A stretch of DNA of 64,000 nt. It comes from Candidatus Saccharimonadia bacterium. Lineage in GTDB: Bacteria; Patescibacteriota; Saccharimonadia; UBA4664. This document shows positions 1 to 64,000 of the stretch, in pieces (the stretch's first letter is position 1; each line of letters begins with the position of its first letter). The notes below the pieces were generated by a model. It saw nothing but the letters and a program-made list of their open reading frames with translations. It was not told the DNA's origin and made no database searches. Where the stretch lies: NCBI GenBank assembly GCA_035479295.1, contig DATIIV010000020.1, forward strand, positions 10,027-74,026, read 5' to 3'. Made by a program: the position numbers and the translations under genes.

Positions 1-1488
1 GAGCAGCGGCGCGGCCTCGTCATCGCCTCGACCGCCCAGGAGCACCATGGGGTGATGGATCGGCCGGTGCTGGAGTATGTGCTGGAGAATCTGCCGGAGT
101 ACGCCCGGCTGCATCATATCATCGAGACTCATCCCGAGACCATGGGCGACGACATGAAGCTGATCGGCCAGTACACCGATGCCTTGACGCGCTTTGGCGA
201 GCTCGGCTACTACGATATTCAGGAGCGGGCGCGCCAGGAGCTGCTTGATTTTCAGGTGCCGCCCGAGCGGATCGACGGCCCTATGGGCAAGCTGTCCGGC
301 GGCCAAAAGCGCTTTGTGGAGCTAGTTAAAGTGACACTGAGCGACGCTGACCTGGCGCTGATCGATGAGCCGACCAACCACATGGACTACGTGGCCAAAG
401 AGGCCTTCGTTGAGTGGCTCGAGGACGCTCAACAGGCCGTGGTGGTCATTACCCACGACCGCGATGTGCTGGCGGTGGTCGATCGCATTGTCGAGATCAA
501 AGATCACGGAGTCGCTAGTTTTGAGGGCAATTACGAGACCTACCTCAAGCAAAACGGTCGCACTACCATGAACGCGGTTGAGCAGTATGAGTTTGATCAG
601 CGCACCTTGGCCAACTTGCACAAGCAGGTGATGGAGGCTCGGCGCAAAAAAGGTATGGCGGCGGCCTCTAGCGCCACGCGGTTTCGCATTATGGAGGAGC
701 GGCTGCAGCGCCAGTACGATGCGCTCAAGAGCCGACTGCAGAAGCCCTCATTCTGGATCGATAGCGAGCAGCTCGACACCATGCAGAGCAAGGTGGTCGA
801 AAAATACGACCGCTACAAGGCCAAAAATATTCGCATTCAAACGCGCGGCGTAACCGAAGGCCAGCGTACGCTCGTTACCGTGGACAGCCTGTCGTTGGGC
901 TACGACGGCCCGCTGTTTGCTGGCCTGTCGCTGACGCTGCGCCAGGGCGAGCGACTGGAGCTCAAGGGCCGCAACGGCGTCGGCAAATCCACGCTGATCC
1001 GAGCGATTCTGGCTACGGCGACGGGCGGCCGGCTGGGCTCGCAGGTGTACGCCGGCACGATTGAGCTCGACCCCAAGGTGAGTATCGGCGTGTATGAGCA
1101 AGAGATCGACCCCAAGTATCTGCCGCTGCCACTAGCTACGGCCATCGCCCAGGTCTACGCCGAGCGCGGGGTGGCGGTCAGTGATCAGCGCGTTAAGCAA
1201 GTTATGTCCGATTACCTGTTCGACCCGCAACTCGATGGCAAACTCGAGATTGGCCGGCTGAGCGGCGGCCAAAAAGCCCGGTTCCAGCTCATCGCCATGC
1301 TCTGTCATAGCCCTAATCTGCTCATTTTGGACGAGCCCACCAATCACCTTGATCTGCCCTCGATCGAAGAGCTGGAGAAGGCGCTCGATCGCTACGCCGG
1401 CGCCATCCTCTACATCTCGCACGACTCATATTTTACGCGCGGGGTGGGCGGGGAAGTGGTGGAGATTACGTCAATTAATCAAAATTAG
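1..1488 (+). CDS. ABC-F family ATPase (tandem ABC domains), 5' end runs off the window
   Basis: Two ABC signature/Walker-B blocks (LSGGQKRFVEL...LALIDEPTNHMD and LSGGQKARFQL...LLILDEPTNHLD) with no TMD. The reading frame is open from nt 1, so the first Walker A lies upstream of the window. Confidence 0.75.
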   Translation, partial: EQRRGLVIASTAQEHHGVMDRPVLEYVLENLPEYARLHHIIETHPETMGDDMKLIGQYTDALTRFGELGYYDIQERARQELLDFQVPPERIDGPMGKLSGGQKRFVELVKVTLSDADLALIDEPTNHMDYVAKEAFVEWLEDAQQAVVVITHDRDVLAVVDRIVEIKDHGVASFEGNYETYLKQNGRTTMNAVEQYEFDQRTLANLHKQVMEARRKKGMAAASSATRFRIMEERLQRQYDALKSRLQKPSFWIDSEQLDTMQSKVVEKYDRYKAKNIRIQTRGVTEGQRTLVTVDSLSLGYDGPLFAGLSLTLRQGERLELKGRNGVGKSTLIRAILATATGGRLGSQVYAGTIELDPKVSIGVYEQEIDPKYLPLPLATAIAQVYAERGVAVSDQRVKQVMSDYLFDPQLDGKLEIGRLSGGQKARFQLIAMLCHSPNLLILDEPTNHLDLPSIEELEKALDRYAGAILYISHDSYFTRGVGGEVVEITSINQN

Positions 1489-1502
1489 CGTACAATACGG
1501 CT

Positions 1503-2906
1503 ATGAAGGGGCATCTCTACTTTATCGGGATTACCGGCCATGCCATTCGGGGACTGGCGCTGGCGGCGCGCGATAACGGCTATGAGGTGAGCGGCTTGGA
1601 CGAGACCGGCGCGCCGCCTGGCAGCGATTGGCTGGATGAGCGCGACATTCGCTGGAGTCGCCAGTTTGAGCCGGCGCAGCTGCACGACGTGACGGCCGTG
1701 ATTGTGACCGGCGCGCACGTCAGCGACGAGTATCCGGCCGTGGTGGAGGCGCGTCGGCGAGCTATTCCGATCAAGTCGTGGGCCCAGTGGGCGGGGGAGT
1801 TTGCGGCCGATAAGCGGGTGTTGGCGGTGGCCGGCACGCACGGCAAGACCACCACGACCTCGTTGATTACGTGGCTACTGGAGGCGGCGGGTCGGCGGCC
1901 AGACTTTCTGATTGGCATTAAGCCCTTTAATTTTGATTCGAGTGTGCGGCTGAGCGATGCGCCAGTGCTGGTGATCGAGGGCGACGAGTATCGCGCCTCA
2001 AATTTGGAGCCGCAAGCCAAATTGGAGTATTACCACCCCAATGTGCTGGTGCTAACGTCGGTGGAGCACGATCACCCCGACATGTACCCCGATTTGCAGT
2101 CGGTGATCGATCGGTTTAGTAGCGTGGTGGCGGCGCTGTCTGGCGACGGCCGGTTGGTGGTGTGGAATGGCAGCGAGACGGCGCTGCAGGTGGCGGCGAA
2201 GGCCTCGTGCGAGGTGGTGACCTACGGGCTCAAGGACGGCGATTACTCGGCCCGCGATGTGGGTTACTTGCCGGCCGGCCTTGAGTTTGACGTGCACCAC
2301 GACGGCCGATTACTGGGCCGGCTGGCCGTGCCGATGTACGGCCGCCACAATGTGCTCAATGCGCTGGCCGCCACGGTGGTGGCGCTGGGCGAGGGCCTAA
2401 CGTTCGCCGAGATTATGGCGGGCGCGGTTGGCTTTAAAGGCGCTTATCGTCGGTTTAATGTGCTGACGCCGGCCGGCGCGCCGATAACCGTGATCGATGA
2501 TTATGCCCACCACCCCACCGAGGTGGCAGCCACCATCGAGGCCGTCAAGCTGCACTTTGCTGGCCAGCGCCTGCTGGTGGTGTACCGGCCGCACACGTAT
2601 TCGCGTACCAAGGCGCTGCTGGCCGAGTACCGAGCCTCGTTTGGCCAGGCCGATCTGGTGTTTATGGCCGATGTGGAGGCCGCGCGCGAGTCGGCGGCCG
2701 ACCGCACGGTTAGTGGCGCCGACATTGTGGCCGGCCTAGGCGAGCAGGCGGTGTACGAACCCGACCGAGCGCGCCTGGCCGACCGGGTAGTAGCGGCCGC
2801 TCGCCCCGGCGACGTGGTGCTCTGTATGACCGTATCGGGCTACGACCGCATCGCCAATGAGCTGGCCGAGCGGCTCGGCGCCACCACCGGTGAGGCCGCC
2901 GCATGA
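1503..2906 (+). CDS. Mur ligase family protein, Mpl/MurC-like (UDP-N-acetylmuramate-peptide/L-Ala ligase)
   Basis: GTHGKTTTTSLI P-loop, EGDEY...LTSVEHDHPDMY and DDYAHHPTEV motifs typical of MurC/Mpl. The N-terminus YFIGITGHAIRGLA is Mpl-like. Confidence 0.7.
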   Translation: MKGHLYFIGITGHAIRGLALAARDNGYEVSGLDETGAPPGSDWLDERDIRWSRQFEPAQLHDVTAVIVTGAHVSDEYPAVVEARRRAIPIKSWAQWAGEFAADKRVLAVAGTHGKTTTTSLITWLLEAAGRRPDFLIGIKPFNFDSSVRLSDAPVLVIEGDEYRASNLEPQAKLEYYHPNVLVLTSVEHDHPDMYPDLQSVIDRFSSVVAALSGDGRLVVWNGSETALQVAAKASCEVVTYGLKDGDYSARDVGYLPAGLEFDVHHDGRLLGRLAVPMYGRHNVLNALAATVVALGEGLTFAEIMAGAVGFKGAYRRFNVLTPAGAPITVIDDYAHHPTEVAATIEAVKLHFAGQRLLVVYRPHTYSRTKALLAEYRASFGQADLVFMADVEAARESAADRTVSGADIVAGLGEQAVYEPDRARLADRVVAAARPGDVVLCMTVSGYDRIANELAERLGATTGEAAA

Positions 2907-3331
2907 GGGTCGGCACTACCGCTAGCGGTCTCATCGTCCGGCTCGAGCCCGACGACGACGTCATCGCCCAGATTCAGGCGGCGGCCGCAGCCCACCACGT
3001 CGTCAACGCCGAAGTCACCGGTCTCGGCTCGGTCGAGGCGCCCACCCTGGCTCACTATCGCCGCGATACCAAACAGTTCACCGAGCGCACCTTCGACGGT
3101 ATCTTCGAGGTTGTCTCGTTGGTCGGCAACATCAGCCTGACCGACGACCGTCCGACCCTTCACTGCCACGTCATCATTAGCGACGCCGGCATGACCACCC
3201 ACGGCGGCCACCTGGTGCGCGCCACCTGCTCGGCCACATTGGAACTCATTATTCGCCAGCTCGATACCACCTACATCAAACGCCGCGATGATGCTGTCGG
3301 ACTAAACGTCTGGCAATTGCCAACCGCCTAA
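2903..3331 (+). CDS. DUF296 / PPC-domain protein (predicted DNA-binding)
   Basis: The pattern FEVVSLVGNIS...RPTLHCHVIISD...GGHLV...ELIIRQL matches the bacterial DUF296/PCC fold. ATGA overlap with the upstream gene. Confidence 0.65.
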   Translation: MRVGTTASGLIVRLEPDDDVIAQIQAAAAAHHVVNAEVTGLGSVEAPTLAHYRRDTKQFTERTFDGIFEVVSLVGNISLTDDRPTLHCHVIISDAGMTTHGGHLVRATCSATLELIIRQLDTTYIKRRDDAVGLNVWQLPTA

Positions 3332-3394
3332 TGGGCAAAATAGACGAAGCCCCGCCACCCAGTCGGGCAGCGGGGTGTGCAGAGAGCAGGGCGA

Positions 3395-3712
3395 CTAGAG
3401 GCCGAGCCGAATGGAAACGATAGTACCCAAGGTTATCCAGGAGGCGGTGCCATTGGGCCTCAAGCTCGCCTCCAGCTCCGGATCGGCCGTAAACTCGAGC
3501 TTGTCGCCTCGCTTGAGGTCGGCCCTAATAGAGCCCCGCGTTGAGCCATCAGTCTCTTGCTGCGGTACGGTTATGCGGCCGATCAGCTGGTTGTGGGCCC
3601 CGTCCACTGACTCTACGCGAAAGACGTAAGGCCCGGTAACGCCGGTCATAATGCTAATGACACAGCCCTTAAAGACGATCTTGGGGCTAAGCTGGTCAAC
3701 CCATCTGCTCAC
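3395..3712 (-). CDS. hypothetical protein
   Basis: 105-aa ORF with GC3-rich codon usage; no recognisable motif. Confidence 0.4.
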   Translation of the reverse strand: MSRWVDQLSPKIVFKGCVISIMTGVTGPYVFRVESVDGAHNQLIGRITVPQQETDGSTRGSIRADLKRGDKLEFTADPELEASLRPNGTASWITLGTIVSIRLGL

Positions 3713-3890
3713 GTTCGCGGCTCCTTAGTTTGCGCTCGGGTTCGTTTGTGGCCAGTCAGCACTATACCATACCCAATCTTGCTAAATTAGCGTCAGCTCG
3801 GCACACCCGTCACTCGACAAAGGCCTCTCAGACTACGATAGTAATAATCGAATCGACATCAATTCTTCGAAAGAGCGAGAGACTAAGGAG

Positions 3891-4076
3891 ATGATGGTGG
3901 CTGATTGCCCCGACTGCGGGTTTGAGAAAGGTATCGTCGGGATGGGTGGATGCAACTGTAAGGATACGCTCCTGGCGATGATAAATCGGGCCGGAGCGCG
4001 GCTGCAGATCGAGAATGCCGGCGACGACCTCGGTGACTTTACCGACCCTCCCTCCGACAGCCCTGCTCAGGACTGA
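3891..4076 (+). CDS. small hypothetical protein with CxxC...CxC (zinc-ribbon-like)
   Basis: AAGGAG 7 nt upstream of the ATG, 61 aa, CPDCG...CNC. Followed by a strong terminator. Confidence 0.45.
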   Translation: MMVADCPDCGFEKGIVGMGGCNCKDTLLAMINRAGARLQIENAGDDLGDFTDPPSDSPAQD

Positions 4077-4256: not shown

Positions 4257-6335
4257 ATGGCCCGCGAATACTCGCTCGAAAACACCCGTAACATCGGCAT
4301 TATCGCCCACATCGACGCTGGTAAGACTACCACCACTGAGGGCATCCTTTATCGCACCGGCAAGACGCACAAGATCGGCGAGGTCCACCAGGGCGAGGCC
4401 ACTATGGACTGGATGGCGCAGGAGCAGGAGCGCGGTATCACCATTACCGCCGCCGCCACGACCTGCTTCTGGAAGGGCAAGCGCATCAACATCATCGACA
4501 CGCCCGGCCACATCGACTTCACGGTTGAGGTTGAGCGTAGTTTGCGCGTACTCGACGGCGCCGTCACCGTCTTCGACGGCAAGATGGGCGTGGAGCCGCA
4601 GTCCGAGACCGTCTGGCGCCAGGCCGACAAGTACGGCGTGCCGCGCATTTGTTTCATTAATAAGATCAACCAGACCGGCGGCGACTTCTACAAGAGCCTC
4701 GAGAGCATTCACGAGCGACTGAGCAAGCGGGCCTACGCCATTCACCTGCCGATCGGCTTCGAGCAAGAGATCAACGGCGTCATCGACCTGATCGAGATGA
4801 AGGCCTATACCTACAAGGACTACAAGGACCACGAGCTCATCGAGGGCGAGATCCCGGCCGACATGCTCGAGAAGGCCACCAAGTACCGCAACCACCTGAT
4901 CGAGGCGGCGGTCGAGGCCGACGATGAGCTGATGGAGAAGTACCTGGAGGGTCACGAGCTCACCATCGATGAGCTCAAGCTGGCCATTCGCAAGAGCGTG
5001 CTGACCGGCACCTTCTTCGCCGTCAGCGGCGGCGATGGTCGCGGCGTCATCGTTGAGAAACTGCTCGACGCCATGGTCGACTTCTTGCCCAACCCGCTCG
5101 ATGTCGGCAGCGTCTGGGGCACCGATCCCAAGACCGGCAACGAGCTTGAGCGCAAGCCCAGCGACGAGGAGCCGTTCTCGGGCTTGGCTTTCAAGATTGC
5201 CACTGACCCGTTCATCGGTAAGCTGGCCTTCTTCCGGGTCTACTCGGGCGTGGTTAAGAGTGGTTCGTACATTCTAAATGCCTCGACCGGCGAGCGCGAG
5301 CGCATCGGCCGCCTGGTGCTGATGCACGCCAACTCGCGCGAAGAGGTGCAAGAGGTGCACGCCGGCGAGATTGCGGCGGCCGTCGGCCTTAAGGGCACCA
5401 CCACCGGCAATACCCTCACCGATGTCGACCACCCGGTCATTCTCGAGAGCATTACCTTCCCCGAGCCGGTTATCTCTATCGCCGTCGAGCCCAAGACCAA
5501 GAGTGACCAGGAGAAGATGGGCAACGCTCTGCAGCGCCTGGCCGAGGAGGACCCGACCTTCCGCGTCCACACCGAGGAACAGACGGGGCAAACCATCCTG
5601 GAAGGTATGGGCGAGCTCCATCTCGACATCCTCGTCGACCGCATGAAGCGTGAGTTCAAGGTTGAGGCCAACATCGGTCGGCCGCAGGTCGCTTACCGTG
5701 AGACCATTAAGAAAGAGGCCAAGGGCCAAGGCAAGTTTGTACGCCAGACCGGTGGCTCCGGCCAGTACGGCGATGTCTGGATCGAGCTGACGCCGCTGGA
5801 GCCGGGCGAAGGCTTCGTGTTTGAGAACGGTATCGTTGGCGGTGTGGTGCCGCGCGAGTACATTAAGCCGGTCGAAGAGGGCATTAAGGATGCTATGTCG
5901 ACCGGTATCTCGGCCGGCTTCCCGGTGGTGGATGTTAAGGCCAAGCTATACGACGGTAGCTACCACGATGTTGACTCGTCCGAGATCGCCTTCAAGCTGG
6001 CAGGCCGTCTAGCCTTTAACGAGGTAGCCAAGAAGGCCGACCCAATCATTCTCGAGCCGATCATGAAGGTTGAAGTAACGGTGCCCGAGGAGTACATGGG
6101 CGACGTTATTGGCAACCTTAACTCTAAGCGTGGCCGCATCGAAAGCATGGAGGATCGCGCCGGCGCCAAGATTATTGATGCCAAGGTGCCGCTGGCCGAG
6201 ATGTTTGGCTACACTACCACGCTGCGCTCCATGACGCAGGGCCGTGCCTCCAACTCCATGGAGTTCGACCACTACGAGGAAGTGCCGCGCAACGTGGCCG
6301 AGGAGATCATCGCCAAGCGCACCACCAAGGCGTAA
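4257..6335 (+). CDS. fusA: elongation factor G
   Basis: [20 protein letters not shown] and NKID G-domain motifs, and an overall EF-G-like sequence. Start chosen at [14 protein letters not shown] (AAAGGA upstream) rather than the ORF-track ATG at 4182. Confidence 0.93.
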
Positions 6336-6363
6336 TCTCGCCTCACTTCGAGTACTGCTCGAC

Positions 6364-6396
6364 CAAAAAGACCTCATAGCCGGGGTCTTTTTTGGT
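6364..6396 (+). terminator. rho-independent terminator AAAAAGACC-loop-GGTCTTTTTT
   Basis: 9-bp perfect stem with flanking A and T runs, immediately after the fusA stop. Confidence 0.55.
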
Positions 6397-7067
6397 TGCG
6401 TCATGGTTTTATAACGGCTATGCTTGCCATAGGCCGAGATTGCTACTAGACTCGATAAGGTCGTGCCGACACGTCGAGGGGCCGAGTCGGCAGATAGCTC
6501 TCCGGGAAGATGATGACACCTGGAGAGAAATGGTCCGGCATCTGCCGGGAAGATCCGGACCGCAGGGCTGGTCTGGCCCAGCGTAGCTCGTTTACACTCC
6601 CACGGACGAGATTGCGTTGGGCCAGACTGGTTCCTCAGCCAAGTTCCCTGCAATTGCTTTCGGACGTCCCGACCGCGCCCGGCCCGTCCGATAGGTGGCA
6701 CGTTACTGCTAGCCAACGCACCCTTGTCCCTGTCGGTTCGTTTGCCAGCATAAATGGTTTTTCGGCTCTTGCCCCGAGCCGGCAACCTTGTGCCACATCC
6801 CTTAGAGCGGGGCGGCCTCCCCCAGGCCATCCCCGGTGGCTCGTCGCCCCGCTCTGCTGTATTTGTTGCCTGCCGTTAGGCGGGCGATTGTAGCCCGGCC
6901 TGTGTGCCGGGCTTTGTGCTGCTTAGGCCTGAATCTCAAAACCCCTCGTCTCGGCGCGCCCCTGCTTTATAGTTCTCCTGTGAGGGTTGTTTGAGCGAAG
7001 CAAGTTTCCGCAACGGGAACCTATAAGGCAGGAAGCGCCTGGGGCGGGGGACTCAGGTGCTTAGGGC

Positions 7068-7097
7068 TTTACAAGCCTAGCCCAATCTGTCTATAAT
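7068..7097 (+). promoter_or_regulatory. promoter TTTACA-N18-TATAAT upstream of tuf
   Basis: Consensus hexamers; about 165-nt leader to the tuf ATG, with AAAGGAG as ribosome-binding site. Confidence 0.5.
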
Positions 7098-7264
7098 ACG
7101 AGGGTCCAAGCGGGCAGTATTTTTTATGTACTAATACTGTTCTTAGGCAATTACTAACAAATTTGGTTCCATGGCAGATCGCTGATGCGGCCGCCGTTTT
7201 CGGTCTACCGCGTGGCAAAGCTGCCACATTAACCATCTGAAATGGAACTATTAAAGGAGTATCA

Positions 7265-8446
7265 ATGGCTGAATTTGCACGCACCAAGCCGCACTTCAAC
7301 GCTGGCACCATCGGTCACGTCGACCACGGCAAGACCACGCTGACCGCGGCCATCACCATCGTCCTGGCCAAGCACAATCCGTCGGACGTCAACAAGAAGA
7401 TCGATTACGATCAGATTGACAAGGCTCCCGAGGAGAAGCAGCGCGGTATCACCATCTCTACCTCGCACGTTGAGTACGAGACCGAGAAGCGCCACTACGC
7501 GCACGTCGACATGCCTGGTCACGCCGACTACGTTAAGAACATGATTACGGGTGCCGCTCAGATCGATGGCGCCGTGTTGGTTGTTTCGGCCGCCGACGGC
7601 CCGATGCCGCAGACCCGTGAGCACATCCTGTTGGCTCGCCAGGTGGGTGTGCCGTCGATCTTGGTCTACATGAACAAGATGGACATGGCCGACCCGGAGC
7701 TGGCTGAGCTGGTCGAGATGGAGATCCGCGAGCTGCTGGCCAAGAACGGCTATGACGAGAACGCCCCAGTCGTCAAGGGCTCGGCCCTCAAGGCCATCGA
7801 GGGTGATGCTGAGGCCGAGAAGTCGATTCTCGAGCTGGTTAAGGCTATGGACGACTTCTTCCCGGAGCCAGTCCGCGAGCTCGACAAGCCGTTCCTGATG
7901 CCGATCGAGGACGTCTTCTCGATCAAGGGCCGCGGCACCGTTGCCACTGGTCGTATCGAGCAGGGCAAGATCAAGGTTAACGAAGAGGTCGAGATCGTCG
8001 GCATTCGCCCGACCAAGAAGACCGTCGTCACCGGCGTCGAGATGTTCAAGAAGCTGCTGCCCGACGCCCAGGCCGGCGACAATGTGGGCGCCCTGCTGCG
8101 CGGCATTGAGCGCACCGACATCGAGCGCGGTCAGGTTCTGGCCAAGCCCGGTTCGGTTACGCCACACACCGAGTTCGACGCTGAGGTTTACGTCCTGAGC
8201 AAGGACGAGGGCGGTCGCCACACCCCGTTCTTCAAGGGCTACAAGCCGCAGTTCTACATCCGCACCACCGACGTTACCGGCGCTGTGACGCTGCCGGACG
8301 GTGTCGAGATGGTTATGCCGGGCGACACCATCCAGATGAAGGTCGAGCTGATCGCTCCGATCGCCATGGAAGAGGGTCTACGCTTCGCCATTCGTGAGGG
8401 TGGCCGCACCGTGGGTGCCGGCGTGGTGACCAAGATCATCAAGTAG
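7265..8446 (+). CDS. tuf: elongation factor Tu
   Basis: [23 protein letters not shown] and NKMD motifs; 393 aa; EF-Tu across the full length. Confidence 0.97.
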
Positions 8447-8462
8447 TCTACGCGATTGATCG

Positions 8463-8492
8463 CAAAAAAGGACCTACGGGTCCTTTTTTGTT
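8463..8492 (+). terminator. rho-independent terminator AAAAAAGGACC-TACG-GGTCCTTTTTTG
   Basis: Perfect stem plus T-run, seen in the sequence. Confidence 0.65.
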
Positions 8493-8649
8493 GGCGGTGG
8501 CACAGGAGCGGCCAGAGCCGGCTCAGGCTCGCACCCTCATAATGGTTTCCGGCTGTGGAACTCGCTTCGCTCGGACAGTCCTCGCCGGAGAACCATCATG
8601 GGGCTGCTCGCCGATAAAAGGGACGAATTCTAGGGTTTGAGCGCGGATG

Positions 8650-8678
8650 CCTTTACAAACGCCACGTTACCGTTTACA
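8650..8678 (+). promoter_or_regulatory. promoter TTTACA-N17-TACAAT upstream of rpsJ
   Basis: Consensus hexamers; about 90-nt leader. Confidence 0.5.
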
Positions 8679-8767
8679 ATATCGCTCAATACCACTAATC
8701 ATATACCGAGAACTCGTCCGGCCGGTAGAGCCGCGAAGAGGTTACGGTATCGCACCAGGAGACTGAT

Positions 8768-9094
8768 ATGCCCGAAGCCAAGACCGAGACTAAGCAGCGC
8801 ATTCGTATTCGCCTTAAGGCCTACGACTCGAAGGTGATCGACCAGAGCGCTAAGCAGATTATTGAGACCGCCATTCGCACTGGCGCTAGCGTGGCCGGCC
8901 CGATTCCGCTGCCGACCGAGCGTAACGTTACCACCGTGCTGCGCAGCACCCACGTCCACAAGGACGCCCGCGAGCAGTTCGAGATGCGCACGCACAAGCG
9001 CCTCATCGACATTACCGAGCCGACCCCCAAGACCATCGACGCCCTGATGAACCTGAACCTTCCGGCCGGCGTCGACATTGAAATAAAAATGTAG
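8768..9094 (+). CDS. rpsJ: 30S ribosomal protein S10
   Basis: IRIRLKAYD...ETAIRTGA...GPIPLPT...RTHKRLIDI, an S10 signature. Confidence 0.95.
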
Positions 9095-9150: not shown

Positions 9151-9630
9151 ATGCGTAATTATAGTGTAGGCCGGGCTATGTGGCTGATGTCACTACTAGT
9201 GATCTGGCTGCTGAGCCTACTCATTGCTGCCGTGGTAGCAACGGATAATCTTCTGCTCCAGTGGGTCGGCTTGACTCGGGCCGGCCAGATTATTGCAGTC
9301 GCACCACTAGCCGATTCCGTCTGGCGCAATGGACTGGAGCGCTATCGGTATCAGGTGCAAGCAGCTGATGGGCGGCAGTATACCGTCAACGATTATTGGC
9401 TTCACCCGGTGGGTGCGGCTGCAGTAGTGCGGCTGACTCCAGACTCGATAGCTAGCAACGGCCAGGTGGCTCTGGACGGCGATTATTATAGCCCAGAACT
9501 TATTTGGGGCATAATATATTTGATGATCTCGGCTGGGTGGGGCTGGTGGTTGGTAATACAATGGCGGAGCGGGCGCTGGCCGATGAGTCACAGCATGATG
9601 CAGCGATTGCTGCCCTGGTTCTTGCGATAA
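9151..9630 (+). CDS. hypothetical membrane protein (N- and C-terminal TM helices, DUF3592-like topology)
   Basis: Hydrophobic N-terminus LMSLLVIWLLSLLIAAVVA and C-terminus WGIIYLMISAGWGWWLVI. Confidence 0.45.
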   Translation: MRNYSVGRAMWLMSLLVIWLLSLLIAAVVATDNLLLQWVGLTRAGQIIAVAPLADSVWRNGLERYRYQVQAADGRQYTVNDYWLHPVGAAAVVRLTPDSIASNGQVALDGDYYSPELIWGIIYLMISAGWGWWLVIQWRSGRWPMSHSMMQRLLPWFLR

Positions 9631-9822
9631 GCCTGGAGGTGACCTGGCGGGCGCCCTTGACGGTGTCGTGCAGCCCGCGTATGTGCGGTAGCACCCGCAG
9701 ACGTTAGATTGGCTCTGGGGAGGGGCTGAGAGACATGTCCGAGCAGTATGCGCTGTCAATCACAGCCTACAGCAAACCCCAATCAGCGGGGCTTGCTGCC
9801 GAGCCGATTGGGGCGGATTGCG

Positions 9823-10698
9823 CTATTCCTGGAGGAAGAGAGCGGTTGCTTTACGGGTAAAGTAGAGCGGCTCTTGATCGGCGCCATCTGGCTGAGCTGC
9901 TACTTGTCTGGGGAGCGAGTGACTAGTGATATCGCGAGTGTTGACCCACAAGTTGCCGAAGGTCTGACCGGCGCGAGGGTCGCCCGGGGGTCGTTGTCGC
10001 GCCAAATAGAGCGAGACGGTGCCTTCCGGCAGTAACGAACCGCGGGCGGGGGTGCTGCAGTAAGTGATGGGGTCGCCGTCGGGGTGGCCTAGCATTACCA
10101 CGGCATCTGTCAGGCCAGTCATCGGCTGAGGGAAGCCACCCGTGGAGGGGCTATGCCGGGGCTCGGCTGTCGGAAAGAACAGTCGGGCCGGATCGGCCGG
10201 CTCGTAGCTGTATAGCAACCGCGGTAGCGGCAGAGCCTGTCCGGTCGGCGGAATGGGCGCAATCAGTCGGACGAGCAGCGGCCAATCCGGATACCGTTTG
10301 GCAAACTCGGCCAGCAGCTTCTCGTTGACCGTCGGCCGCAGCCCGTGCGGCAGATTATTCGCCTTGAGCGCGGCGGCGAAGGTCTCGGGGCGGGCGTCTG
10401 CCATGGTGATGGTGCGTGTAAACTCGTCGTTCAGCTGGGGCGGCCGTCTCGGCAGATCATGCAGGCCGGGATAATGCGTCGCCGCAATGTCGCGCAAGAG
10501 GCAGGGTCCACCGGTCGGGCTCTTGAATGGTGGGCTCAGCTCGACGGTTGGCACTGGCAGAAGCAGGGCGTTAGGCTGAGCGTTGCTGGCCACCAGGCAC
10601 TCATGACCACCGGTATGCCTCAGCTCTCCGTTTGTGATGGTGGTCTGCCCAAAGTAGATCGTCTGCTTGATCTTGCCGGGCCAGAGTAGCCAGCTCAC
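9823..10698 (-). CDS. hypothetical protein
   Basis: 291-aa ORF, no recognisable motif. The + strand overlapping ORF 9748-10035 was judged spurious. Confidence 0.4.
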   Translation of the reverse strand: MSWLLWPGKIKQTIYFGQTTITNGELRHTGGHECLVASNAQPNALLLPVPTVELSPPFKSPTGGPCLLRDIAATHYPGLHDLPRRPPQLNDEFTRTITMADARPETFAAALKANNLPHGLRPTVNEKLLAEFAKRYPDWPLLVRLIAPIPPTGQALPLPRLLYSYEPADPARLFFPTAEPRHSPSTGGFPQPMTGLTDAVVMLGHPDGDPITYCSTPARGSLLPEGTVSLYLARQRPPGDPRAGQTFGNLWVNTRDITSHSLPRQVAAQPDGADQEPLYFTRKATALFLQE

Positions 10699-10806
10699 GT
10701 GTCGTCCTTCCTGTTGGGATCACAGCCGTACACCACCATACCATATTACCTATTTGCTGCAAGGGTCGTCGCCACAAAATCAGCCGTAGCTGGCCTTGGG
10801 TGTAGT

Positions 10807-11325
10807 ATGATTCCTAAAAAGGAACCAACAGCTATGGCTACCCCGAGCCACGACCAACAACCCGCCATCTTCGATAAAGAGATTCTGCGCTTCACCTTCT
10901 GCGGCATTGTGATCGCCAGCTTCTTTGCGGCGCTAACGGCGGGCACGAGCCTGCGCGACCTGCTTAGTCCCTATGGCAGCCAAGTTGCCACCACCGTGCT
11001 GGGGCTGGCGGCGGCCCTCTCGTTTGCCTATCTGCTGAGCGTGGCCTCGTGGCTCAAGTACAAGAGTCCACGCAAAGTCGACCGGTTTACGCTGAGCGCC
11101 AAAGTGACGCGCTTCTTTTATGACATGACGGTCAACGTTTTTGGTATTTACGTGCTGGTGCTATTGTCGCAATTCGTCATTACGCGCTGGCTGCATCTGG
11201 GTTTTCTGTGGTATCTGCTGCCATTGTACGTGGTGGTCTCGAGCGGGCTGTATGTGGTGGCGCGGTTTGGCTGGTTCTTGGTGCGGGGGTTGATAGAGTA
11301 CTACTACGACGAGATTGCTAGCTAG
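10807..11325 (+). CDS. hypothetical multi-pass membrane protein
   Basis: At least four hydrophobic helices. The ORF-track start at 10699 abuts a divergent gene, so an internal start (ATG 10807 or 10834, the latter with AAGGA upstream) is more plausible. Confidence 0.45.
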   Translation: MIPKKEPTAMATPSHDQQPAIFDKEILRFTFCGIVIASFFAALTAGTSLRDLLSPYGSQVATTVLGLAAALSFAYLLSVASWLKYKSPRKVDRFTLSAKVTRFFYDMTVNVFGIYVLVLLSQFVITRWLHLGFLWYLLPLYVVVSSGLYVVARFGWFLVRGLIEYYYDEIAS

Positions 11326-21882: not shown

Positions 21883-23192
21883 ACCTAACGACGCTCAAGC
21901 AGGTCTATCGTTCGCCTGACTTGCGTCGTCGTGTATTGGTGGTTCTGGGCCTCCTTATTCTGTTTCGCTTCCTGGCTCACGTTCCCGTGCCGGTACCCGA
22001 TAACGCCGCTTTGGCCAACTTTCTTAAGTATGTCTTTAACTCGAATAAGGTTCTGGGCTTTGCCGACCTGTTTTCGGGCGGGGCTTTAACCAACTTCTCC
22101 ATTATTATGATGGGCGTTGGGCCATACATTAACGCCTCAATCATTATTCAGCTCCTTACCCAGGTGGTGCCGCGACTCGAATCATTGCAAAAAGAGGGTG
22201 AGATGGGCCGGCGCAAGCTCAACCAGTACACGCGTCTCCTGACGCTACCATTGGCTCTAGCTCAGTCGTTTGGTATGGTCTTCTTGATTCAGCAGACCTC
22301 GACTCAGGTGACTGGCCACGACCTTATTGGTCACCCCAACCTGTTCCAGTGGCTGCTGATGGTGAGCACGATTACCGCCGGCACCATGTTGCTCATGTGG
22401 ATCGGCGAGATCATTACCGAAAAAGGCATTGGCAACGGTATCTCGTTGATCATCTTCTGTGGTATTATTGCCCGGCTGCCTACTACGGCCGGTCAGTTTA
22501 CCTCGCTGGCCAGTGGCGATACGGGTAAACTGTTGACGCTGGTCTTCTTCTTGGCGGCCACGCTGGCTATTATCGCCTTTGTGGTGGTACTTAACGAAGG
22601 CACGCGCAATATTCCGGTATCATACGCCAAACGGACACGCGGCAACCGAATCTATGCCGGCGTTGATACACATCTGCCGCTGCGCGTTATTACGGCTGGC
22701 GTCATTCCGATCATCTTTGCGCTGGCCTTTTTGTCGGTGCCGGGTATTTTGGGCCAGATTCTCTCGAACGCTAAGACCCATTGGGTGGCCAGCGCCGCCA
22801 AAGAGCTTACCACGCTGTTTGCGACTACCGGTGCCATCTATGCCGTGTCGTACTTTGTACTGGTGGTAGCCTTTACCTACTTCTACACCTCGGTAGTATT
22901 TAATCCCAAAGATATTGCCGAGAACCTGCAGAAACAAGGCGGTTTTGTGCCCGGCATACGGCCTGGCTCTCAGACCGCTACCTATCTGCGGCGGGTCGTT
23001 AATCGCATTACGCTGGCCGGAGCGGCCGGCTTAGGCATCATTGCGGTGCTACCGTTTGTCGCCCAGAGCTTTACCCAGAGCCAAGTCTTAACCTTTGGTG
23101 GTACTGGTCTGCTTATCGTAGTTAGCGTGGCCATAGAGACGCTTAAACAGCTCGAGGCGCAGGCTATCACCACCTCCTACGAGCAGTACTAG
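21879..23192 (+). CDS. secY: preprotein translocase subunit SecY
   Basis: 10-TM protein with the SecY signature regions (GVGPYINASIIIQLL, plug and hinge). Confidence 0.95.
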   Translation: MNLTTLKQVYRSPDLRRRVLVVLGLLILFRFLAHVPVPVPDNAALANFLKYVFNSNKVLGFADLFSGGALTNFSIIMMGVGPYINASIIIQLLTQVVPRLESLQKEGEMGRRKLNQYTRLLTLPLALAQSFGMVFLIQQTSTQVTGHDLIGHPNLFQWLLMVSTITAGTMLLMWIGEIITEKGIGNGISLIIFCGIIARLPTTAGQFTSLASGDTGKLLTLVFFLAATLAIIAFVVVLNEGTRNIPVSYAKRTRGNRIYAGVDTHLPLRVITAGVIPIIFALAFLSVPGILGQILSNAKTHWVASAAKELTTLFATTGAIYAVSYFVLVVAFTYFYTSVVFNPKDIAENLQKQGGFVPGIRPGSQTATYLRRVVNRITLAGAAGLGIIAVLPFVAQSFTQSQVLTFGGTGLLIVVSVAIETLKQLEAQAITTSYEQY

Positions 23193-37111: not shown

Positions 37112-37505
37112 ACCTGCGCCTCTCTCGGCTCATAATCATAAAAGCACCCACCCCAACAGTAGATGCTTCTATGATCTTTAAGGCAAGCGAGTGGTTAGTA
37201 TTGGTCTCGGCCCGTGCTGCCAGTTGCAAATGGAGCGGCCGGCCACTGTCTTCCACTGAGCTAGGTTCTTCTCCGAGCTCCGACGCCACATACCCAGGGC
37301 GCCGAACCTTGCGAGATATACCAAAGCCCGAAGACTAGGTTACTGAAATAGCCGTGAGCGTAACTCGGCAGAATATCCAAAAAAACGGGCTATCTGGAGA
37401 GTATTTTTTGGCCAGGCCCAAGCAACATGACGTTAGCGCGTCTAAAAGTCACCCAGCGCCTTGTCCAAGCTGCGCTTTTATGCTATTGTTTTATGGTTAG
37501 ATTTT

Positions 37506-41914: not shown

Positions 41915-42328
41915 ATGTTTGGTCGCACCACGCTCCGCGAATGGCCCGAGTGGGGCGCAGAGTTCGCGCTCCTAACCTTGTTCTTGCCCGTCGTCGCGGT
42001 GGTGGCAGTGCCACTGTGGGCCGACGAGCTCAATCCGGGCTCGCCCCACGGCTGGCTCCCCATTGTCGCGGTCTTCGTTTACGCCGTGATCAACGCGGTG
42101 CCGCCCATGCTCCGCTGCAACCAGATGAAGGCCATCGGCCTGGTGGGCATTGCGCTGGTGCACGTCATCGTCGCGACCTTCCTGGGGCGGGAGCTCTTCG
42201 GCAGCCTGGCGCAGGGTGTCTACAACGGCAATATCGTGGGAGCCCTGGTCGCTGGCAGCGTGCTCGTGGTGTTCATCGCCCACCTGTCCCTGTCGCCTGC
42301 CGCCAAGACCTTGGCCGCCCAGAGCTGA
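41915..42328 (+). CDS. hypothetical membrane protein (4 TM)
   Basis: Hydrophobic helices. Confidence 0.4.
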   Translation: MFGRTTLREWPEWGAEFALLTLFLPVVAVVAVPLWADELNPGSPHGWLPIVAVFVYAVINAVPPMLRCNQMKAIGLVGIALVHVIVATFLGRELFGSLAQGVYNGNIVGALVAGSVLVVFIAHLSLSPAAKTLAAQS

Positions 42329-42424
42329 CCATCCCGACCGCCCTGCGCCACCCGCGCTTGCTTTCTTCGCCGCCAGGCGCACCTCGTGTGTGCCTGGCGG
42401 TTCGTCGTTTGGGGCGAGAGCTGG

Positions 42425-43537
42425 TTAGGTAACCAGCGGCAGCTCAAACCAGAATGTGCTGCCGGTGCCCTCTGTGGAGTCAAAGCCGATCCGGCCACCG
42501 TGGTGCTCCACGAAGTACTTGGCGATGGCCAGCCCCACGCCCGACGAATCCGGCTGCAGCACCGAGGCGTTGGAGGCGCGAAAGAAGGCCGTAAACACGT
42601 TGCTCTGCTCGGCGGCCGGAATGCCGGCGCCGGTATCGGTGATCTCGAACCGGACCGCCTGATCGGTCTGTCGCAGCGAGCTGGTGATGGTGCCGTCGGT
42701 GCCGGTGTAGGCGGCGGCGTTCTCGGCCAGCTTCTCCAGCACCAGCCGAATGTCTTCCGGGTCGACGAACAGCGGATTAAGCGGTTGTTTGGGCGCAGTA
42801 TATTTGCAGGTAATGCCCTTAACCTTGCAGCTCTTCATCCACTCCACCATGATCGACTTCCAGAGGCTCTCGATCGAGGTCTTCTGCTTACTCAGCATTA
42901 CCCGGCCCTCTTCCATATCGATAACCAGCAGGAGGTCGCGAATGCGCGTCACCAGCTTCTGGTTGGCGTCGTAGGCAATGCGCAGGATCTCGCGCTGGGT
43001 TGGCTTAACTGCGCCAACTTCGCCGCCCAGCACATGCGCTAGATTCCAGCCCACCACCGTCAGCGGCGTACGTAGCTGGTGAGCCATAATGCCGATGAAC
43101 TTCTGCCGCAGCTCATTAAGATGGGTATTGCGGCGCTCGGCATCTTTTTTGGCATAGGCGTTTCTGAGAGCGGTGGGCAGACGCTGGAGGTTATCTTTTA
43201 GAATATAATCGTCGATACCAGCCTTGATAATCTCGACCACCGTGGCCTCAGGCAGCGCGCCGGTTACCAGCAAGAACGGCGCCTCGATCTGCTGCTGGCG
43301 CGTCAGGGTAAAGGCCTCCAGGCCGTTAAAGTCGGGCAGCGAGTAGTCGGACAGGATGACGTCGGGCCGCTCCTCATCGAGAGCCGCCACGAAATCGGCC
43401 TTGGTGCTAACTCGCCGCGCTGTAAAGGCGATTTCACCCTTCTTAAGTTCGTGTTGCACCAGCTCGGCGTCGGCGGCCACGTCCTCGAGCATAAGGATTT
43501 TGAGCGGCGGCGCTTTGATAGGAGATTGCTCGGTCAT
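42425..43537 (-). CDS. hybrid receiver-histidine kinase (REC-HisKA-HATPase_c)
   Basis: N-terminal receiver (LMLEDVAADAEL...DVILSDYSLPDFNG), H-box MAHQLRTPLTVV, and C-terminal ATPase G-boxes. Confidence 0.8.
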   Translation of the reverse strand: MTEQSPIKAPPLKILMLEDVAADAELVQHELKKGEIAFTARRVSTKADFVAALDEERPDVILSDYSLPDFNGLEAFTLTRQQQIEAPFLLVTGALPEATVVEIIKAGIDDYILKDNLQRLPTALRNAYAKKDAERRNTHLNELRQKFIGIMAHQLRTPLTVVGWNLAHVLGGEVGAVKPTQREILRIAYDANQKLVTRIRDLLLVIDMEEGRVMLSKQKTSIESLWKSIMVEWMKSCKVKGITCKYTAPKQPLNPLFVDPEDIRLVLEKLAENAAAYTGTDGTITSSLRQTDQAVRFEITDTGAGIPAAEQSNVFTAFFRASNASVLQPDSSGVGLAIAKYFVEHHGGRIGFDSTEGTGSTFWFELPLVT

Positions 43538-52857: not shown

Positions 52858-52932
52858 TTTCGTGAGTCGTTGAACTGCCGGGAAAGAGCAGGCCCCATTG
52901 TATCACAGCAGGCAGCTCACTATGATGACGCA

Positions 52933-53231
52933 ATGAACCAGCGCTGCGCCTGGGTGATGCGGGTAATGAATTATACGAGCAGTACCATGATGAGGAATTT
53001 TGAATTCCTCATTCTGGGGCCGGTTTATCGTGGTTGACGATTCTGCGGCGGCGCCAGGGCTATCGAGCTGTCTTTGCCAATTTTGATGCCATGGCGGTAG
53101 CTCAGTACGGCTGGGAGCAGGTGGCGGCTTTGTTGGCTGAAACCGCCATTATTCGCAACCGGCTTAAGGTAACCGCTGCTATTAATAATGCCCAAAAGTT
53201 TCTGGAGGTGCAGCGGCTCGGTCGGTCCTGA
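52933..53231 (+). pseudogene. tag: DNA-3-methyladenine glycosylase I (tag) remnant, frameshifted and C-terminally truncated
   Basis: MNQRCAWV matches the Tag N-terminus (MERCGWV). A second frame (53034-53231) matches the Tag mid-region (YRAVFANFDAMAVAQ...AIIRNRLKVTAAINNAQKFLEV) and then stops early. Confidence 0.6.
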
Positions 53232-53332
53232 TGGTGGCCGAGTTAATCGGTACGCAAGTACAACTCTAGCGGTTTACACATCGATTGGCGCCGGACAGTA
53301 ATGTCCGACGCCAATGGTTGATGTGGATGGGA

Positions 53333-54748
53333 CTAGGCGGCCCGGCGCAGCTGGCTAACGGCTGCGATGGGTTCGCCCGTGAGGGACACCTCGGCCTGGA
53401 AGACGCGGCCGCGGTAGACGGCACGGCCGTCGTGGATGTGGATGGGCTCGATGGCGAAGGGCTGGTCGCCGTCGAGGTAGGTAACGACCGCCAGGCCCTG
53501 CTGCCAGTTCTCGAACCGGCTGACCGGACGGCCGGCGTTGCTGGCCGCTCCGTTGGCGCTGGGTACTGCGCCGTCGACCCGGCAGAGGCAGCCGGGGGTG
53601 AAGGCCATCAGGTTGCGGCCCGAGCTGTGGTCGGTCTTCCACTGCATCTCGATGCGGTGAACGTGGCCGAAGATGCTCGAGGCGCCCTCGTCGTCGACCA
53701 CGGCCTTGGCCGTTGAGCCGTTGGACCGCACGATCTTGCCGTGTTGGCAGTTGAGCCGGTCGTTGATCCAGTAGCGGGCGGCCGGGTAGCCGTCCACGTA
53801 CTGCACACCCAGCTCGGCCAGCCGCAGCAAGTGCTGGATGCTCATGACCGGCCAGGAAGCCGGCTGGTTGGCCTGGCGCAGCCCGAAGGCGGCCCGGGCG
53901 TTGTCGAGAATCCAGCGGAGCAACCGGTAGTCGTGGTTGCCCTCGAGCAGTACCCGCTCCTCGGCGTTGGGTGCCGCCGCCTCCTGCTCGGCCAGGAACA
54001 GGTGGCCGCGGTCGAGGCCGGCCTGCATGGTGGTGGCGAAGGTGGGCAGCTGCACGAACCGGCTCAGATTCGGCAGGTCCAGGAAATCACCCAGGTTGAC
54101 CACCTTGTGCGGGTTGACGAAGCGCATGATCTGCAGCGCCACGTTCATGGCCTGCTCGTCGTGCATCGCCACTAGCTCGCCGGTGGTCGGGTCCTGCCAG
54201 TAGCCGATCTGCGGGTCGGGCAGGACCACCGCCACCTTGAGCGGACCGGTGCGCGGCTTGGGCACGTGCACGTGGCGGATCACCACGGGCGCGGCCGGCT
54301 GCACCACGGGCCAGGCGGGACCTTCGGCCGCACCAGCCGGGCTCATCACCACCGAGGTGACGTCCAGGTCGTGGATCTCGGCCTCGCCGGCGTTGTTCTT
54401 GGTCAGCATCTGGTAGGTGCCCACGCGCACCTTCTCGACCTTGCCGATCTGGTCGGCGTCGATGCCAGCGTCGATCAGCAGTTTGGCCACGCGATTGATG
54501 GTGGCGGCGTCCGGCACGGTGCCGGCGGCGGTCTGGTCGCTCGCCTCGGCCTCCGTCATGGCCTCGCTGCCGTCGTGGAAGTTCGGGTCGGGCCCGACTC
54601 CGCCGGCCTTGGCATAGGCCCTGGCGCGTAGCTCCAGTAGTCGTACGATGTGGTGCTCCGGGAAGGCCTCCGTCAGCTGCTGCGGCGTCAAGCACGCCAG
54701 CAGTCGCGCGGTGGTCTTGGCCGTCAGCGGGAGCCTCTTCTTCTCCAC
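53333..54748 (-). CDS. calcineurin-like metallophosphoesterase with ~180-aa N-terminal extension
   Basis: GDFLD, GNHD and GHVH phosphoesterase motifs in order. Confidence 0.65.
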   Translation of the reverse strand: MEKKRLPLTAKTTARLLACLTPQQLTEAFPEHHIVRLLELRARAYAKAGGVGPDPNFHDGSEAMTEAEASDQTAAGTVPDAATINRVAKLLIDAGIDADQIGKVEKVRVGTYQMLTKNNAGEAEIHDLDVTSVVMSPAGAAEGPAWPVVQPAAPVVIRHVHVPKPRTGPLKVAVVLPDPQIGYWQDPTTGELVAMHDEQAMNVALQIMRFVNPHKVVNLGDFLDLPNLSRFVQLPTFATTMQAGLDRGHLFLAEQEAAAPNAEERVLLEGNHDYRLLRWILDNARAAFGLRQANQPASWPVMSIQHLLRLAELGVQYVDGYPAARYWINDRLNCQHGKIVRSNGSTAKAVVDDEGASSIFGHVHRIEMQWKTDHSSGRNLMAFTPGCLCRVDGAVPSANGAASNAGRPVSRFENWQQGLAVVTYLDGDQPFAIEPIHIHDGRAVYRGRVFQAEVSLTGEPIAAVSQLRRAA

Positions 54749-63680: not shown

Positions 63681-64000
63681 ATGCCCGAGACACTCACATC
63701 GACCGATCGTATCCGCAACGTCGCCATTATTGCTCACGTTGACCATGGCAAGACTACCCTAGTGGACGGCCTGCTCAAGCAGTCCAAGACCTTCCGCGAG
63801 AACCAGGCCGAGATGCAGCAGACCGCCATTCTCGACACTGGTGACCTGGAGCGCGAGCGTGGCATTACCATTAGCGCCAAGACGATTGCTGTTAACCATG
63901 ACGGCTACAAGATCAACATTATCGACACGCCGGGCCACGCCGACTTCTCGGGCGAGGTGGAGCGAACGCTCAATATGGCCGATGGCTGCCTGCTGATCGT
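63681..64000 (+). CDS. typA: translational GTPase TypA/BipA, 3' end runs off the window
   Basis: By-eye translation [35 protein letters not shown]...[14 protein letters not shown]...[16 protein letters not shown] is closer to BipA than to LepA or EF-G. Confidence 0.8.

Follow-up and report, generated by a model that had tools for sequence, protein, structure and literature searches.

In the 64,000-nt stretch analyzed here (contig DATIIV010000020.1, referred to below as the window), which comes from the metagenome-assembled genome of a high-GC Saccharimonadia (Saccharibacteria/TM7), the fusA and tuf genes encoding EF-G and EF-Tu, respectively, are separated by 929 nt, and about 670 nt lying between the fusA terminator and the tuf promoter carry no coding signal. 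This spacer is non-coding and strongly structured; it has no sequence homology to its counterparts in close relatives, which are nevertheless rich in hairpins as well. The reading that we favor, with a probability of about 0.5, is that the region is a lineage-specific, fast-turnover, palindrome-rich filler located at a hot spot of insertion and rearrangement between fusA and tuf, where it may have been generated by the insertion of hairpin elements and by template switching. It would consist of two components: about 460 nt of unique stem-loops (6464–6922, the hairpin array), the turnover of which would be so fast that relatives with 91% EF-G identity carry wholly different ones, and a hairpin element of approximately 110–140 nt with a conserved core (6943–7050, hairpin A), which would have entered immediately 5' of the -35 box of tuf.

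Folding and Coding Potential of the Spacer

The minimum free energy of the plus strand at 6397–7067 amounts to -323.9 kcal/mol, vs. -270 ± 5.7 kcal/mol in dinucleotide shuffles (z = -9.3), and the minus strand shows a z-score of -3.2. An independent second run gave spacer z-scores of -6.3 (plus strand) and -3.9 (minus strand). In the controls, the coding segments of fusA and tuf gave values ranging from -0.2 to -1.8 on the plus strand, and five other long intergenic regions in the window gave values ranging from +1.4 to -3.4 on the same strand, one of these five reaching -5.5 on the minus strand. The idea that all the intergenic regions of this genome may be rich in hairpins was rejected, the controls scoring much closer to zero than the spacer. 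In a sliding scan, the run of low-z windows covers positions 6464–6922, and local folding resolves the spacer into ten discrete hairpins.

A previous reading of the window made from the sequence alone (the sequence-only reading) had described this spacer as a long, non-coding region with long perfect hairpins, and the length and the exceptional degree of structure were both borne out. The three stems it had listed are real, namely an 11-bp perfect stem with a 30-nt loop (6804–6814/6845–6855), an 8-bp stem (6892–6899/6906–6913), and a 7-bp stem (6532–6538/6555–6561), but the true count is about ten independent hairpins, and the strongest one, at 6943–7050 (-62 kcal/mol), had not been mentioned. 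The internal repeats also exist, although short matches in two copies such as these are to be expected by chance; the direct repeat CCGGGAAGAT occurs at 6502–6511 and 6545–6554, the first copy having been placed one base away. The description of the spacer as GC-rich did not hold, its GC content being 0.56–0.63 vs. 0.58–0.64 in the flanking genes.

The three open reading frames (ORFs) called in this region (6392–6586, 6510–6893, and 6009–6830 on the minus strand) are present. The GC content of ORF 6510–6893 at the three codon positions is 0.61/0.65/0.61, vs. approximately 0.6/0.4/0.8 in real genes of the window, and neither this ORF nor the other spacer ORFs showed a Pfam match. Neither the codon-position GC nor family matches nor conserved translation pointed to a protein-coding gene or a pseudogene, and tblastx gave no significant match.

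Rfam 15 was scanned both at the gathering thresholds and in a permissive E-value mode. At the gathering thresholds, no family was matched in the spacer, including RNase P, tmRNA, and SRP, the absence of which had been correctly noted previously, as well as 6S, OLE, GOLLD, ROOL, HEARO, and riboswitches; the Rfam/Infernal check that had been proposed for a structured RNA was therefore negative. The permissive mode yielded only terminator-like matches (20.1 and 16.9 bits vs. thresholds of 49.5 and 50; E 0.06–1.8). A search for tRNA and tmRNA found nothing in the spacer, and Tandem Repeats Finder detected only a trivial 12-nt duplication inside the 6892–6913 hairpin, with no periodic unit.

Other 150-nt windows with low z-scores (-7 to -10, with 12 shuffles only) were observed at 42301–42450 (plus strand), 37126–37275 (minus strand), 22876–23025 (plus strand), and 52876–53400; some of them may be terminators or further structured elements.

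Turnover of the Spacer in Close Relatives

Two scans with EF-G, of genomes and of metagenomes, gave relatives with at most 74% identity among the matches listed, and a protein database together with look-ups of identical proteins gave access to the close relatives. With L165–167, L170, L171/172, and L173, the number of lineages compared, including that of the window, is five. The EF-G proteins of these four relatives are 89.5–91% identical to that of the window, the fusA genes showing 77–82% nucleotide identity, and in all five lineages the spacer is 735–1030 nt long and carries no credible gene.

Between any two of these five lineages, only the last 200 nt or so can be aligned. This alignable part, which corresponds to the tuf promoter and leader, begins some 10 nt before the -35 box. 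When the spacer was compared with 182 loci using blastn, nhmmer, and tblastx, only the promoter and the leader were recovered; no 8-mer common to at least three of the five lineages was found outside them in a k-mer search, and the array shows no translated similarity to the relatives. Since the five lineages share neither alignable sequence nor k-mers, no covariation alignment can be built for 6397–6925.

Each of these unalignable spacers nevertheless forms its own chain of 8–15 stable, independent hairpins, and in the relatives many of the stems comprise 13–24 pairs and are perfect or nearly so. The spacer z-scores range from -6.3 to -11.6 on the plus strand and from -3.9 to -7.6 on the minus strand, and in sliding scans of the 7–9-kb loci, the fusA–tuf spacer is the longest strongly folding run in each lineage having one. 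Because every unalignable spacer folds strongly, hairpin richness is a recurrent property of this locus in the clade, independently of sequence homology. The alignment of orthologous spacers suggested in the sequence-only reading therefore had a divided outcome: sequence conservation and covariation were lacking while hairpin richness recurred, and the absence of conservation in relatives, which that reading had named as evidence against itself, applies to the sequence and not to the structure.

Shorter runs of strong folding (z -4 to -10) were also observed in other intergenic stretches of relatives, at 7401–7900 in L171 (downstream of tuf) and at 7701–8300 in L162, so that the hairpin clusters are not strictly confined to the fusA–tuf interval in this clade. 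The long spacers of distant Patescibacteria were considered as possible instances of the same feature and rejected: their z-scores are mostly between -3 and +1, and a small ORF is frequently present in them. In L005, L007, L011, L012, L017, L018, and L034, a short conserved protein, the N-terminus of which resembles MxxxxxIIxLxKKTGDRIIIxD...YExL, is encoded between fusA and tuf. Judging by eye, we take it to resemble PhdYeFM-type antitoxins, and this small ORF is absent from the window.

Relatives Carrying Genes between fusA and tuf

In other relatives, the interval is occupied by genes. Six reverse-strand genes covering 4.3 kb lie between fusA and tuf in the L168/L179 contig and approximately 11 kb of genes in the L169/L180 contig, whereas fusA is followed by an alpha-amylase gene in L174 and by yet other genes in P0002. 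In the L168/L179 and L169/L180 contigs, only a structure of the size of a terminator is present after fusA. The interval is a hypervariable site of insertion and rearrangement, the sole constrained parts of which are the fusA terminator, the tuf promoter, and the tuf leader.

These data bear on the proposal that the spacer might be the eroded remnant of one or several genes once located between fusA and tuf, either the PhdYeFM-like ORF or the cassettes of the relatives. Many distant Patescibacteria do hold a conserved small ORF at this position, close relatives carry 4–11 kb of genes there, and gene callers place spurious ORFs in the arrays (168 aa in L171, for example). However, tblastx comparisons with all the fetched loci, including the inserted genes, gave only weak matches (E 1e-4 or worse, in a tiny database) and no trace in the arrays of any gene occupying this position in relatives, the codon-position GC is non-coding, and z-scores of -6 to -12 are not what gene decay would lead one to expect. 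We therefore regard a gene remnant, one of the interpretations offered previously, as very unlikely.

The same relatives are informative about tuf. Both hexamers of the tuf promoter are invariant across the five aligned lineages. L179 and L180 have them as well; in these two, the tuf promoter and leader are intact, with only 285–330 nt lying upstream and no array. Since L179 and L180 keep the promoter and leader without the array, tuf does not need the latter: the array is dispensable for tuf. It had also been suggested that the spacer might be a cis-regulatory element for tuf, which could be a long upstream element or an extended 5' untranslated region. Its location directly upstream of tuf, bounded by the fusA terminator, and the presence of a weak upstream promoter would fit this suggestion, which seems highly improbable in view of these two contigs, of the short distance (about 10 nt) between the start of the conserved regulatory unit and the -35 box, and of the terminator-like hairpin lying between array and promoter.

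The consensus fold of the tuf leader comprises 31 pairs, six of which show compensatory changes. This 160-nt leader, which is likewise visible upstream of tuf in L179 and L180 and has no match in Rfam, is a candidate cis-regulatory or stabilizing element of tuf.

A Conserved-Core Hairpin Family

With nhmmer, positions 6920–7070 (plus strand) matched positions 8499–8660 (minus strand) in the tuf–rpsJ spacer, the match to hairpin A itself being recorded at 8519–8670 (minus strand), and the two copies are called A and B. The motif consists of a core formed by GCGAGGACUGUYUGAG, a variable stem-loop, and CGAGUUCCGCAG, inside a long outer stem. Between A and B, the core blocks are conserved and the outer stem differs by compensatory changes. 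A covariance model, R1, was built for this hairpin; it gave 74 bits (E 4e-19) for copy A and 87.8 bits (E 4e-23) for copy B, the full-length copies in the window and in L099 scoring 69–88 bits. The matches in the window span 6957–7034 (plus strand) and 8531–8608 (minus strand), two inverted copies flanking tuf. No copy was detected with R1 in the loci of the close relatives (L165–L173), and no Rfam 15 family corresponds to the motif, either in the spacer scan covering copy A or in the scans of copy B and the L099a copy.

Further copies were found outside the window. The L099 contig, which belongs to distant low-GC Patescibacteria, carries two (8880–8963 and 2435–2518), one of which lies between rpsJ and rplC. 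Two high-GC viral contigs carry two copies each (9039–9083 and 10216–10291 in L176; 268–309 and 102–188 in L178), and a partial copy occurs in L175 (10289–10322), in frame inside a topA-like ORF (9694–10443, minus strand). In an alignment of 11 sequences, which was itself fitted to the R1 model, 96% of the cells pair and 14 of the 18 pairs show compensatory changes; these values were reached by none of 500 shuffles and approached by no slid control. Hairpin A belongs to a covarying multi-copy family.

The A/B family is present in several copies, in either orientation, and with presence/absence differences, as is expected of a mobile palindromic element, and hairpin A may well be mobile; it is the only spacer hairpin with a second copy within the 64-kb window. 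REP/BIME-type repeats would be expected to show many copies of one conserved palindrome across the genome. Its outer stems are not conserved and covary. An 11-bp direct repeat flanks copy A (10/11 matches) and none flanks copy B. This repeat may be a target-site duplication, which is only suggestive given a chance expectation of about 0.15, and its placement is compatible with an insertion into an ancestral terminator–promoter junction like that of the relatives.

By inspection, the internal loop of the motif can form tandem G-A pairs; hammerhead, canonical K-turn, box C/D, SRP domain IV, and attC were rejected, their structures showing no fit to the core on inspection only. The L175 copy seems to add about 45 low-complexity residues to a topoisomerase-I-like ORF, as judged by inspection, and is reminiscent of the in-gene Rickettsia palindromic elements (RPEs). 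The two inverted copies in L176 flank a 303-aa gene, which we take, reading it by eye, to be low in GC and DUF2971-like. In L176 (9013–9025 and 9099–9111) and L178 (approximately 240–255 and 320–335), GAGCAGCGCAGGG-like direct copies occur on both sides of the hairpin; instead of reflecting a target duplication, these copies may belong to the element itself.

DNA-Level and RNA-Level Signals

The evidence as to whether the structure matters at the DNA or the RNA level is mixed. In every array, the plus and the minus strand alike form much more stable folds than their shuffled versions. The window fold contains 32 G-U pairs on the plus strand and eight on the minus strand, whereas this bias is reversed in L170 and L173, and the sum over the five lineages is 103 (plus) vs. 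84 (minus). Good folding of both strands and the lack of a consistent G-U strand bias are to be expected of inverted repeats at the DNA level.

At this very locus, two near-identical strains differ in the loop of the fusA terminator, which reads CTCGTAATAG in L165 and its exact reverse complement, CTATTACGAG, in L166. Between these two strains, the EF-G of which are identical, the central 10 nt of positions 5612–5665 are inverted and one stem pair is changed on both sides. Such a flip is the hallmark of template switching within a molecule or of recombination between arms, and represents a small inversion or template-switch event. Template switching has been documented to create and maintain hairpins (PMC8794818), and has been shown in yeast to homogenize the arms of inverted repeats and to invert their spacers (PMC8604942).

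On the RNA side, the region might be a discrete, fast-evolving, structured non-coding RNA (ncRNA) extending from the promoter-like site at 6424–6452 to the terminator-like hairpin at 6892–6913 and exerting a sequence-independent function as double-stranded RNA (dsRNA), for instance as a decoy of an RNase or a dsRNA-binding protein or as an RNA-stability element. The strand difference in G-U pairs in the window is in line with this possibility, as are the plus-strand z-scores, which are more extreme than those of the minus strand in four of the five lineages and clearly so in three. In three of the five lineages (the window, L165, and L170), a weak plus-strand promoter-like site marks the 5' edge of the array, no minus-strand site of this kind was found at the array edges in the five lineages, and all four relatives have a terminator-like hairpin immediately ahead of the tuf promoter. 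The lineages have no conserved sequence, k-mer, or loop motif in common, however, and the long, near-perfect stems with arbitrary loops are unlike known functional RNAs; the reversed G-U bias, the promoter matches of only 9/12, absent in L171 and L173, and the lack of an array beside fusA or tuf in relatives with inserted genes also speak against an ncRNA. The structured ncRNA envisaged in the sequence-only reading is not supported as a conserved one, relatives with approximately 80% fusA nucleotide identity having no sequence, k-mer, or peptide in common outside the promoter and leader; of the interpretation given there, the non-coding and structured character of the spacer stands, and the conserved ncRNA, the tuf regulator, and the gene remnant are not supported. 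Since neutral processes fail to explain the locus-specific richness in hairpins in five lineages, which other intergenic regions do not show, a fast-evolving ncRNA remains a serious, although unlikely, alternative.

Organization of the Interval

The features of the interval are listed in Table 1. At 6365–6395, the 3' end of fusA is followed by a GC-rich hairpin and a T run, as in intrinsic terminators, and a terminator hairpin occurs at the equivalent position in the relatives. The consensus terminator scanner lists neither this hairpin nor that at 6892–6913 because its loop limit is 8 nt. The tuf promoter reported previously was found at the expected place.

Table 1. Features of the fusA–tuf interval and its surroundings (window coordinates).
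Feature	Position	Strand	Remarks
fusA (EF-G)	4257..6335	+	Upstream boundary; 692-aa ORF, identical to P0001; NCBI name elongation factor G, Candidatus Saccharimonadia
fusA intrinsic terminator	6365..6395	+	9-bp perfect inverted repeat AAAAAGACC/GGTCTTTTT, then T run
Candidate weak sigma-70-like promoter TTGCCA-17-TAGACT	6424..6452	+	Only 9/12 consensus match; 5' edge of array
Hairpin array, eight independent stem-loop domains	6464..6922	+	Local folding, -13 to -50 kcal/mol each
Array domains	6464–6492, 6498–6527, 6532–6561, 6562–6651, 6657–6694, 6695–6796, 6804–6855, 6856–6922	+	
Terminator-like 8-bp GC stem ending the last array domain	6892–6913	+	Then UUUGUGCU, weak U tract
Left copy of 11-bp direct repeat TGCTTAGGCCT flanking hairpin A	6920..6930	.	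10/11 match to 7058–7068
Hairpin A (copy A of conserved-core element)	6943..7050	+	108 nt, -62 to -63 kcal/mol; core 6980–7014 GUGAGGGUUGUUUGAGCGAAGCAAGUUUCCGCAAC
Right copy of 11-bp direct repeat TGCTTAGGGCT	7058..7068	.	Abuts tuf -35 box
tuf promoter TTTACA-18-TATAAT	7068..7097	+	11/12 consensus
tuf 5' leader with long hairpin at ~7166–7250	7104..7264	+	Conserved; hairpin stops just before Shine-Dalgarno sequence
tuf (EF-Tu)	7265..8446	+	Downstream boundary; NCBI naming of identical EF-Tu agrees
tuf terminator	8463–8490		Copy B sits between this terminator and the rpsJ promoter (8652–8680)
Copy B of conserved-core element	8531..8608	-	Core 8551–8586; inverted relative to A

The str/S10 cluster is fragmented in this clade, fusA not being preceded by rpsL or rpsG. 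Upstream of fusA, the window carries an ABC-F-like ATPase gene, a Mur ligase gene, and a PCC-domain gene. A promoter-like site of its own was observed for each of fusA, tuf, and rpsJ, and a terminator hairpin for both fusA and tuf. The tuf–rpsJ interval also varies in the relatives, from 320 nt to approximately 1.5 kb, sometimes with reverse-strand ORFs. At the edge of the window, positions 63912–63964 are 85% identical over 53 nt to positions 4485–4537 of fusA and probably encode the G-domain of a second translational GTPase.

Origin and Possible Roles of the Array

According to the filler reading, hairpin elements would have been inserted and template-switch (quasipalindrome) mutations would have created and perfected the inverted repeats. 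Plus-strand transcripts, resulting from read-through or initiated locally, would form a series of stacked hairpins, and their 3' ends would lie at the terminator-like hairpin that precedes the tuf promoter. The stack would shield tuf, a gene equipped with a conserved promoter and leader of its own, from fusA transcription, and this insulation would be a plausible, unproven side effect. Both the mutational origin and the insulator role are what we infer from the comparisons described above.

Several observations weigh against this reading. The recurrence of hairpins at the same place in five lineages is not explained by purely neutral mutation and suggests that structure may be under selection, and the other long intergenic regions of the window are mostly not rich in hairpins. 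Template switching is a genome-wide mutational mechanism, which alone fails to explain a 0.5–0.8-kb array at a single locus in five lineages. For the hairpins other than A, neither the 64-kb window nor some 1.5 Mb of related loci contains another copy, so that an origin from mobile palindromes is shown for only one of the approximately ten hairpins. The plus strand folds clearly better than the minus strand in the window, L165, and L171, which fits a role at the RNA level. Lastly, both of the two stem polymorphisms found among L165–L167 are disruptive to pairing, two being too few to be informative.

A bolder version of the selective view is that selection in this clade keeps a 0.5–0.8-kb multi-hairpin transcript, which might provide insulation, protect against decay, or act as a decoy for an RNase, and that the conserved-core motif described above represents a new class of structured and possibly mobile RNA or single-stranded DNA elements of Patescibacteria and phages. 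The array sequence would then be free to turn over completely, because its function would depend only on a stable chain of stem-loops. We consider this combined proposal doubtful.

Reduced epibiont genomes normally hold little spare DNA. The array may be an example of structure that is kept by mutational bias or by sequence-independent selection in such a genome. Extreme predicted structure can persist at a locus despite complete sequence turnover, and the neighboring genes manage without it. Pipelines searching for ncRNA candidates among long, well-folding intergenic regions would pick this locus, which is a useful caution. The conserved-core hairpin is covarying, multi-copy, outside Rfam, and present in Patescibacteria and viral contigs, and the R1 model makes it possible to search for its distribution and gene associations.

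Comparison with Known Systems

The REP and BIME sequences of Enterobacteria are clusters of intergenic palindromes near terminators, which have been proposed to stabilize mRNA, attenuate read-through, and interact with topology factors. The array resembles them in that its palindromes are stacked in an intergenic region near terminators and can fold in transcripts, and they are the closest system in terms of the supposed effect. REPs are, however, a high-copy family of conserved sequence mobilized by RAYT transposases, whereas nine of the ten hairpins studied here are unique: none of the nine is repeated in the window or related loci, and no motif is common to them.

Hairpins A and B resemble miniature inverted-repeat transposable elements (MITEs), the Correia elements of Neisseria, and RPEs in consisting of a single long hairpin of approximately 100–140 nt that is multi-copy, occurs in either orientation, shows presence/absence between relatives, and is flanked in the case of copy A by a short direct repeat; the partial in-frame copy inside a coding gene of L175 is a further likeness to RPEs. 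They differ from MITEs, which conserve their terminal inverted repeats, in that conservation lies in the center of the hairpin, the outer stem being free to covary. This combination is typical of a structured RNA or single-stranded DNA motif, and no transposase is linked to these copies.

Like OLE, GOLLD, ROOL, HEARO, and raiA, the array is a long, non-coding intergenic region with a very stable predicted structure. These RNAs show conserved sequence and structure and are all in Rfam, whereas the array has no Rfam match and only its richness in hairpins is conserved.

Stem-loop TIGR arrays, which serve as guide RNAs of a Tas/Nop-domain RNA-guided system, are series of hairpins with stems that diverge even within one array and that are missed by standard repeat finders; TIGR-Tas loci have a neighboring Nop-domain gene and a unit of about 37 nt with two 9-nt spacers flanked by symmetric box C/D motifs such as CUU/UG (PMC12045711; bioRxiv 10.64898/2026.09.09.750476). 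The present array likewise consists of tandem hairpins with divergent stems, and the organism is a Patescibacterium, TIGR systems being common in Patescibacteria and also known in phages. Nevertheless, no Nop domain was found by Pfam in the ORFs of window positions 52–4076 and 9151–11325 or in the precomputed Pfam annotations of the gene calls at the relatives' loci, a 291-aa unknown protein has no relative in the PDB, and no unknown gene is conserved beside the arrays across lineages. The loops are mostly 4–15 nt long, many stems are continuous, and neither a dual-spacer box C/D unit of about 37 nt nor any periodic unit is present. A TIGR array was rejected on the basis of this architecture and of the absence of a Nop gene in the ORFs scanned, and its probability is in our opinion minimal.

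The hairpins generated by template switching show near-perfect arms, arbitrary loops, and rapid turnover (PMC8794818, PMC8604942, PMC5941160), features which the array shares with them, along with the inversion of a loop at the adjoining terminator.

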